DNA from: Escherichia coli | Lineage (GTDB): Bacteria > Pseudomonadota > Gammaproteobacteria > Enterobacterales > Enterobacteriaceae | DNA length: 420 nucleotides | Reading direction: 5' to 3' (one strand) | Assembly (NCBI RefSeq): GCF_003334335.1 | Contig: NZ_QOWQ01000191.1 | Shown: in pieces, positions 1 through 420 of the stretch | Numbering within the stretch: the stretch's first letter is position 1 | How the letters are laid out: the number at the start of each line of letters is the position of its first letter | The notes under the pieces: model-generated | What the model was told of the DNA's origin: nothing | The model's input: only the letters and a program-made list of their open reading frames with translations | Database searches by the model: none | Position numbers and translations under genes: made by a program

Positions 1-420
1 ACAACGGATTTATCAGCAACGGAAATGGCCTGGAAGCTGTGGGAGCTTATGGGGGAGGTGTATTCGAACCGCTGGACTCAGAAGAACGGGGCCGCACCTT
101 CGAAGCTCTGGATTGCCCAGATTGGCACGATGACTGAACAGCAAATCCGGCTGGTCTGCCGTCAGTGCATGGACCGCTGCCGGGCGGGTGAAACGTGGCC
201 CCCAGACCTGGCTGAGTTTGTTGCACTGATTTCGGAGAGTGGGGCAAATCCATTTGGTCTTACGGTGGATGCAGTGATGGAAGAGTACCGGCGCTGGCGC
301 AATGAATCCTGGCGATACGACGGGAGTGATAAATACCCGTGGCCACAGCCTGTGCTGTACCACATCTGCCTCGAAATGCGTACCAGAGGGATTGAGCGCC
401 AGATGACGCAGGGTGAGTTA
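1..420 (+). CDS. P: Partial CDS (both ends outside the window) for a lambda P-family phage replication protein, the DnaB helicase loader; corresponds roughly to lambda P residues 38-174
   Basis: Frame 1 (codons starting at 1, 4, 7 ...) reads through all 140 codons with no stop: TTDLSATEMAWKLWELMGEVYSNRWTQKNGAAPSKLWIAQIGTMTEQQIRLVCRQCMDRCRAGETWPPDLAEFVALISESGANPFGLTVDAVMEEYRRWRNESWRYDGSDKYPWPQPVLYHICLEMRTRGIERQMTQGEL. Frames 2 and 3 both hit stops (tga near 131-135). Against lambda P as I recall it, the blocks match in order with conserved spacing: TMTEQQ vs TTMEQV; PPDLAEFVAL vs PSPGQFVAW; then 36 vs 37 residues to D-KYPW vs ESYPW; then PQPVLYHICLEMRTRGIERQMTQGEL vs KSNAHYWLVTNLYQNMRANALTDAEL (26 vs 26 residues). 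Comparison is from memory, not a database search. Confidence 0.85.

Follow-up and report, generated by a model that had tools for sequence, protein, structure and literature searches.

A lambda-P-type helicase loader gene of an Escherichia coli lambdoid prophage, with its YPW block placed on domain III

The 420-nt stretch of Escherichia coli DNA analyzed here in full (hereafter the window) very probably encodes residues 25–164 of a 220-aa replicative helicase loader of the lambda P type, in which a block singled out by an earlier reading of the sequence (window 334–420) forms part of domain III. Frame 1 of the plus strand is open across all 420 nt. In E. coli JE86-ST05, a chromosomal prophage contains the same DNA at 100% identity (locus L002), and the complete ORF can be read there. 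Two RefSeq genes lie under the window: the 3′ end of a gene for a “DnaT-like ssDNA-binding domain-containing protein”, read in frame 3 and stopping at 135–137, and a 153-aa “replication protein P” with its start ATG at window 130. The product of the former, referred to below as the O-like initiator, matches the Pfam DnaT domain and a PHROG “replication initiation protein” family. Note that, with the label “replication protein P” carried by the identical E. coli prophage DNA, the lambda-P-type loader identity of the gene is already known and annotated, and its identification is correct but ordinary. The features on which the analysis rests are the following (window coordinates, unless L002 is given):

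1..137, plus strand: 3′ end of the O-like initiator gene (DnaT domain), frame 3, stop codon at 135–137 (RefSeq CDS L002 5100..6137)
1..420, plus strand: loader coding sequence, residues 25–164 of the 220-aa ORF, frame 1 (PF06992, PHROG 109, fold match)
130..132, plus strand: RefSeq start ATG of the 153-aa protein, Met68 of the 220-aa ORF, aligning with lambda P Met82
196..219, plus strand: W-P-P-D-L-A-E-F motif, ORF residues 90–97, end of domain II, with P92 and F97 nearly invariant
331..384, plus strand: equivalent of lambda P 145–162, by homology only (PMC12661323)
334..420, plus strand: flagged block, ORF residues 136–164, equivalent to lambda P 146–174, domain III (BLASTP, HMM-anchored alignment, AlphaFold)
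340..342, plus strand: Trp138 codon, nearly invariant
358..360, plus strand: Tyr144 codon, nearly invariant
403..420, plus strand: equivalent of lambda P 169–174, by homology only (PMC12661323)
L002 5929–6591: full 220-aa loader ORF, E. coli JE86-ST05

The assignment to the lambda P family is carried by profile searches and by the predicted fold. PF06992 matches the window with an E-value of 2.2e-9 and is its sole significant Pfam match, and PHROG 109 (“P-like helicase loader”) matches it with an E-value of 1e-41. With the full ORF, the latter alignment pairs residues 14–220 with positions 18–236 of the 236-position profile (E 2.4e-62), a profile that lambda P itself matches with an E-value of 2e-98. 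BLASTP of the full ORF against lambda P gives 25% identity over 113 aa (E 3e-6). The AlphaFold model of the ORF, computed without templates from a 42-sequence alignment that includes lambda P, reaches a pLDDT of 88.4. In this model, helices 24–104 correspond to domain II and helices 113–129, 141–157 and 161–180 to domain III; an extended segment and then a C-terminal helix (203–216) come next. By AlphaFold and Foldseek, this is the architecture of the family: the compact, helical domains II and III, then an extended stretch, then the lasso helix at the C-terminus. [quoted passage not shown] ORF residues 1–23 have a pLDDT below 50, form no helix and are predicted to be disordered, and the PHROG alignment begins at profile position 18. 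Neither phmmer of the 140-aa translation of the window against PDB sequences nor NCBIfam gave a match, in keeping with the divergence of the subfamily, which is too large for searching with a single sequence. A profile search did recover lambda P, with a profile that contained lambda P and is thus not independent evidence, and the search for related loci with the single protein returned close relatives only. Overall, the window protein is a bona fide member of the lambda P family.

Compared with lambda P (PF06992; structures 6BBM, 8V9S, 8V9T, 9OA1 and 9OA2), the window protein shares domains II and III, the linker and the C-terminal helix, has a similar length (220 versus 233 aa), is encoded right after the initiator gene, and comes from the same host species. 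It differs from lambda P in sequence (~21–25% identity), as far as the model goes, in its N-terminal 23 residues, which are predicted to be disordered and show no counterpart of the N-terminal lasso helix (lambda P domain I), in the partner initiator, which is of the DnaT-domain type instead of the lambda-O type, and in the overlap between the two genes (209 nt versus 4 nt). The AAA+ loaders DnaC and DnaI do the same job and target the same DnaB docking-helix/linker-helix (DH–LH) interface with a lasso helix, by convergence (PMC12661323). In contrast to them, the window protein has no AAA+ domain and no relationship in sequence or fold: the Walker A/B-bearing AAA+ domain expected of a DnaC/IstB-like loader is absent, the model being all-helical with no AAA+ fold match. 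A further system, likened by description, is DopE, a chromosomally domesticated lambda-P-like loader that is described as a derivative of lambda P with a partner derived from O (PMC5509034); DopE is chromosomal in bacteria lacking DnaC and DciA, whereas the window gene belongs to an E. coli lambdoid prophage, in a host that has DnaC.

We then examined the flagged block. Translated in frame 1, window 334–420 reads YPWPQPVLYHICLEMRTRGIERQMTQGEL. The coordinates and sequences of the original prediction were exact, the quoted lambda P peptide corresponding to residues 146–174 of the 233-aa protein, and the gapless pairing that it proposed was recovered in the same register both by BLASTP of the full ORF and by the HMM-anchored alignment. 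Over these 29 positions, 7 residues are identical (24%) and 10 are positives, for a BLOSUM62 score of 31. This register is by far the best offset on lambda P (the next best scores −1), and the score is reached by 0.04% of 20,000 shuffles (p ~4e-4). Most of the signal is concentrated in the YPW motif, which supplies 25 of the 31 points, leaving only 6 for the other 26 positions. The sequence comparison thus places the alignment above chance, though resting on few residues. In the AlphaFold model, the block comprises the YPW loop, helix 141–157, a turn and the first turn of helix 161–180; BLASTP places a 4-residue insertion in the window protein, relative to lambda P, ahead of the YPW loop.

Lambda P is divided into domains I (1–29), II (~30–119), III (~120–192) and IV (193–233), the last being the C-terminal lasso (PMC12661323). 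In the DnaB–lambda P structure at 2.66 Å, every domain III is in contact with two DnaB subunits in a row (Shatarupa et al, 2025): lambda P residues 145–162 touch loops 424–432 of the DnaB C-terminal domain (CTD) on one subunit, and residues 131–141 together with 169–174 touch DnaB residues 391–398, 447–449, 454–456 and 468 on the next one (PMC12661323). Our mapping follows the ranges printed in that work, by segment and not by residue. The block aligns with two of these three published contact segments, and the DnaB-contact segments of domain III are present and alignable in the window protein at low identity. Because it overlaps two published contact segments, the block lies inside the region assigned as DnaB-contacting and not outside it. 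The description of the block as the C-terminal part of the loader is accurate in so far as it falls in the C-terminal half, within globular domain III, and inaccurate for the extreme C-terminal lasso. The latter (lambda P A215–F226) prises apart the DH–LH interface of DnaB (PMC12661323); its counterpart in the AlphaFold model, helix 203–216, is encoded downstream of the window (L002 6421–6591). Published genetics agrees with the contact reading of domain III, as the pi mutation R137Q of lambda P restores growth on a grpD55 host, which carries dnaB E426K (PMC3640518). The suggestion that conservation of the block points to engagement of a DnaB-type helicase is thus supported by homology, and by analogy with lambda P we infer that the window protein would bind and inhibit E. 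coli DnaB using residues of the block.

If the loader works as lambda P does, several copies of it would dock onto the tier of CTDs in E. coli DnaB, with domain III, including the block, wedging between two adjacent CTDs. The C-terminal lasso helix would insert between the docking and linker helices of DnaB and replace the DH–LH packing, so that the hexamer might be held by the loader copies as an open, ATPase-silent spiral. Recruitment of this spiral by the O-like initiator would then deliver the helicase to the initiator-bound phage origin.

The conservation of the block across P-family homologs, which had been put forward as a check, varies with the set of sequences compared, its rank ranging from 1st to 89th of 170. 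Relative to lambda P, it is 15th among 29-residue windows, with better scores for ORF 159–187 (42) and ORF 110–138 (40). Against gp14 of phage phi80 it ranks 1st, with 19 of 29 residues identical (66%). It is also first of 181 windows, by a small margin (0.504 vs 0.483), when every representative relative extending into the block is counted; the representatives are a 50%-identity set, and the block is covered by ~70 of these sequences as compared with 107–118 for the WPPDLxEF region. When restricted to the 16 representatives spanning both halves of the protein, its position drops to 89th of 170, the best window being ORF 72–100. In relatives from Vibrio phages, homology ends at about ORF residue 133 and the block cannot be aligned. 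The label “best-conserved” is thus not robust, although it stands for phi80 gp14 and, narrowly, for the block-reaching relatives. Among full-length relatives, the most widely conserved stretch is W-P-P-D-L-A-E-F. Position by position, W61, P92, F97, G110, W138, Y144 and G182 are nearly invariant (at least 90% in 42 diverse sequences), of which W138 and Y144 lie inside the block, with conservation scores of 0.89 and 0.91 among the representatives. In lambda P numbering, the conserved positions of the block include W148, Y154, T170, E173 and L174.

Since only 7 of the 29 residues match lambda P and W138 and Y144 are near-invariant, the conservation may reflect the fold as much as the interface. 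On that alternative, the block would be kept because domain III needs it for its hydrophobic core and its first helix, with DnaB being recognized mainly through other residues or through the C-terminal lasso. The concentration of the lambda P score in YPW and the aromatic nature of the two near-invariant positions speak for it, as do the average rank of the block among full-length relatives and the 22 of 29 positions that differ from lambda P, most of the aligned contact positions included, with both phages using the same E. coli helicase. However, the lambda P segments 145–162 and 169–174 are assigned as DnaB-contacting in the published work (PMC12661323). Moreover, the block tracks the host as an interface would, being strongly conserved in E. 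coli phage phi80 and replaced in the Vibrio phages. We regard the fold-core alternative as possible, if rather unlikely, and note that it overlaps with the loader-contact explanation and is not exclusive of it. Returning to the loader-contact reading, E. coli lambdoid phages would have at least two very divergent DnaB-binding halves, one of the lambda type and one of the phi80/Rac type, with 7 of the 29 block residues in common, and therefore offer a natural experiment on which interface residues matter. The block itself contains little that is new beyond its location on the helicase-contacting domain of the 2025 DnaB–lambda P structures.

The relatives of the window protein display a modular pattern. 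The C-terminal half (domains III/IV) of phi80 gp14 (L007 1198–1884; also HK639 and HK225 “replication protein 14”) is 46% identical to that of the window protein, and the block is its best-matching window. Unlike the window protein, phi80 gp14 has an N-terminal half of the lambda P type, with 48% identity to lambda P overall and far more over residues 1–115, and is paired with the lambda-O-like gp15. A mosaic junction can be placed in phi80 gp14 near the LPSPGQFVAW/WPPDLAEFVA motif (by comparison with L003 and L002), and from these alignments the WPPDLxEF motif is an apparent recombination joint. Conversely, relatives in Vibrio phages share the N-terminal half only, at 31–33% identity over ORF 13–133, followed by a different C-terminal half. 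In Vibrio phages 199E37-1 (L008 1387–2025) and D77 (L009 1399–2055), domain II is shared, and the C-terminal half is unalignable and without YPW; in D77, the annotated gene begins ~230 nt after the homology starts and overlaps a gene labeled “replication initiation O-like”. The N- and C-terminal halves of P recombine independently.

Classically, the N-terminal half of P is seen as fitted to the initiator, and the C-terminal half to the host helicase. The modular pattern would fit a host-helicase-specific C-terminal half and an initiator-specific N-terminal half, consistent with the domain roles reported for lambda P (PMC12661323). At the DNA level, the C-terminal part of the initiator gene and P travel together, and the first 485 nt of the initiator gene are shared with other phages independently. 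The region L002 5094–5578 is 83% identical to genes annotated “replication protein O / primosomal protein I” in Escherichia phages Evi, Tritos and others; the Escherichia phages sharing the first ~485 nt of the O-like gene are unrelated and have no P gene of the window type. As far as these alignments indicate, a putative recombination joint is located inside the O-like initiator gene.

As part of the same overall explanation, we hold with high confidence that the host element is an E. coli lambdoid prophage of the Rac/PPompW-like type, in which the loader gene lies directly downstream of the O-like initiator gene and overlaps it. The early-gene order dicC/cII-like, ydaT, O-like, P-like is found in four loci (L001, L002, L004 and L006), and the placement of the gene right after the initiator gene, in a lambdoid early rightward operon, is that of the loader family. 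DNA about 90% identical is present in the Rac-SA53 and PPompW/Stx2a prophage records. Of 5426 complete E. coli genomes, 1246 (roughly one in four) contain DNA related to the window, and this very common prophage gene is confirmed as encoding a lambda-P-type loader. On the minus strand, ORFs of up to 116 aa were discarded as artefacts, all homology and all wobble-biased variation being in plus frame 1, and no Rfam RNA family was found on either strand of the window. The record KU052037 labels the loader gene “ydaV”, a name apparently transferred on the strength of gene position, since K-12 YdaV is DnaC-like.

Rac-type prophages are often cryptic, and several genes in the surrounding locus are frameshifted or truncated, which raises the question of whether the loader gene is a decaying, non-functional relic of a defective prophage. 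We consider this very improbable. None of the 38 haplotypes has lost the ORF, its upstream ATG or the overlapping O frame, and the variation is wobble-biased: in the region coding for P only, the variable sites number 5, 3 and 16 at codon positions 1, 2 and 3, and the amino-acid sequence of the block is invariant. Close homologues are present also in phage-genome records (Rac-SA53, Citrobacter phage Chris1 and Klebsiella phage Kp4865-4). The loader gene is under purifying selection. As for a chance resemblance of a short aromatic motif to lambda P, which the 24% identity of the block and the weight of three residues in its score could evoke, its probability is negligible: the matches to PF06992, to PHROG 109 (full-length, E 2e-62) and, by Foldseek, to the fold of lambda P only already refute it, and the shuffling test and the conserved gene context speak against it as well.

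A modestly interesting by-product of the analysis concerns the start of the loader gene. Because homology and helices extend upstream of it and because it aligns with an internal methionine of lambda P, the Met that RefSeq takes as the start (window 130) is probably internal to an ORF of 220 aa. The frame-1 ORF reaches a conserved upstream ATG at L002 5929, preceded by a Shine–Dalgarno-like AAGGGGG, and from there overlaps the O-like gene by 209 nt in the +1 frame (L002 5929–6137). Homology to PHROG 109 begins at ORF residue 14, helices within 24–66 are confidently predicted by AlphaFold, and the residues TTMEQV at the RefSeq start pair with GTMTEQQ around Met82 in lambda P. Judging from the model, the 153-aa annotation probably lacks 67 residues, among which three helices of domain II are predicted with confidence. 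Databases hold the loader in forms of 220–223, 177–181 and 153 aa, and widely propagated annotations probably truncate it by 67 residues because the gene overlaps its neighbor.

The same +1 overlap is found in five loci diverged to 69% nucleotide identity, where it spans 209–215 nt when counted from the aligned conserved Met (263 nt in L005 if counted from an earlier ATG). A 41%-identical homologue has an overlap of 227 nt, and the open P frame of two Vibrio phages leaves room for an overlap of up to 200–215 nt. Between the closest of the five diverged loci, changes number 10, 1 and 8 at O-codon positions 1, 2 and 3. Across the 38 haplotypes, the part of the overlap encoding P residues 41–69 shows 1, 1 and 9 variable sites at P-codon positions 1, 2 and 3, and the part encoding residues 1–40 shows 1, 6 and 5. 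This substitution pattern fits two constrained frames, with window 1–137 as a candidate dual-coding region. We lean slightly towards the view that the first ~70 codons of the loader are nested, in the +1 frame, within the final 209 nt of the initiator gene, as a long and conserved dual-coding segment hidden by the RefSeq start. If real, the overlap may couple the synthesis or the stoichiometry of initiator and loader, and would be a clear example, in a replication module, of overprinting that has lasted for long.

An O–P frameshift fusion as the normal state had been suggested by PHROG 15931, which matches both proteins, and by single-member fused ORFs (P0106 and P0032). It was rejected, as neither frame is broken, and the O stop codon and the upstream P ATG are retained, in any of the 38 haplotypes or the five diverged loci. 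PHROG 15931 has 482 positions, of which 1–347 are matched by the O-like protein and 279–482 by the P-like protein; merged ORFs, or ORFs fused by frameshift, probably went into this profile. In a metagenomic contig (L011 1681–2727), the P-like gene is called and the overlapping 348-aa O-like ORF is left uncalled; the overlap therefore distorts automated annotation.

Two further observations concern related records and the region upstream of the window. Positions 9461–9878 of PP818812.1 (Actinobacillus phage vB_Apl-pPE4) are ~90% identical to the E. coli Rac-like module, and the Actinobacillus pleuropneumoniae host label of this record is odd; it may represent an E. coli prophage or contamination. 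Within the O-like gene of L002, ~10-bp direct repeats (TGTCACGNNN), in five overlapping copies, form two clusters at 5227–5272 and 5508–5564. By analogy with lambda, whose ori lies within O, these clusters upstream of the window are candidate iterons of an origin located in the initiator gene.
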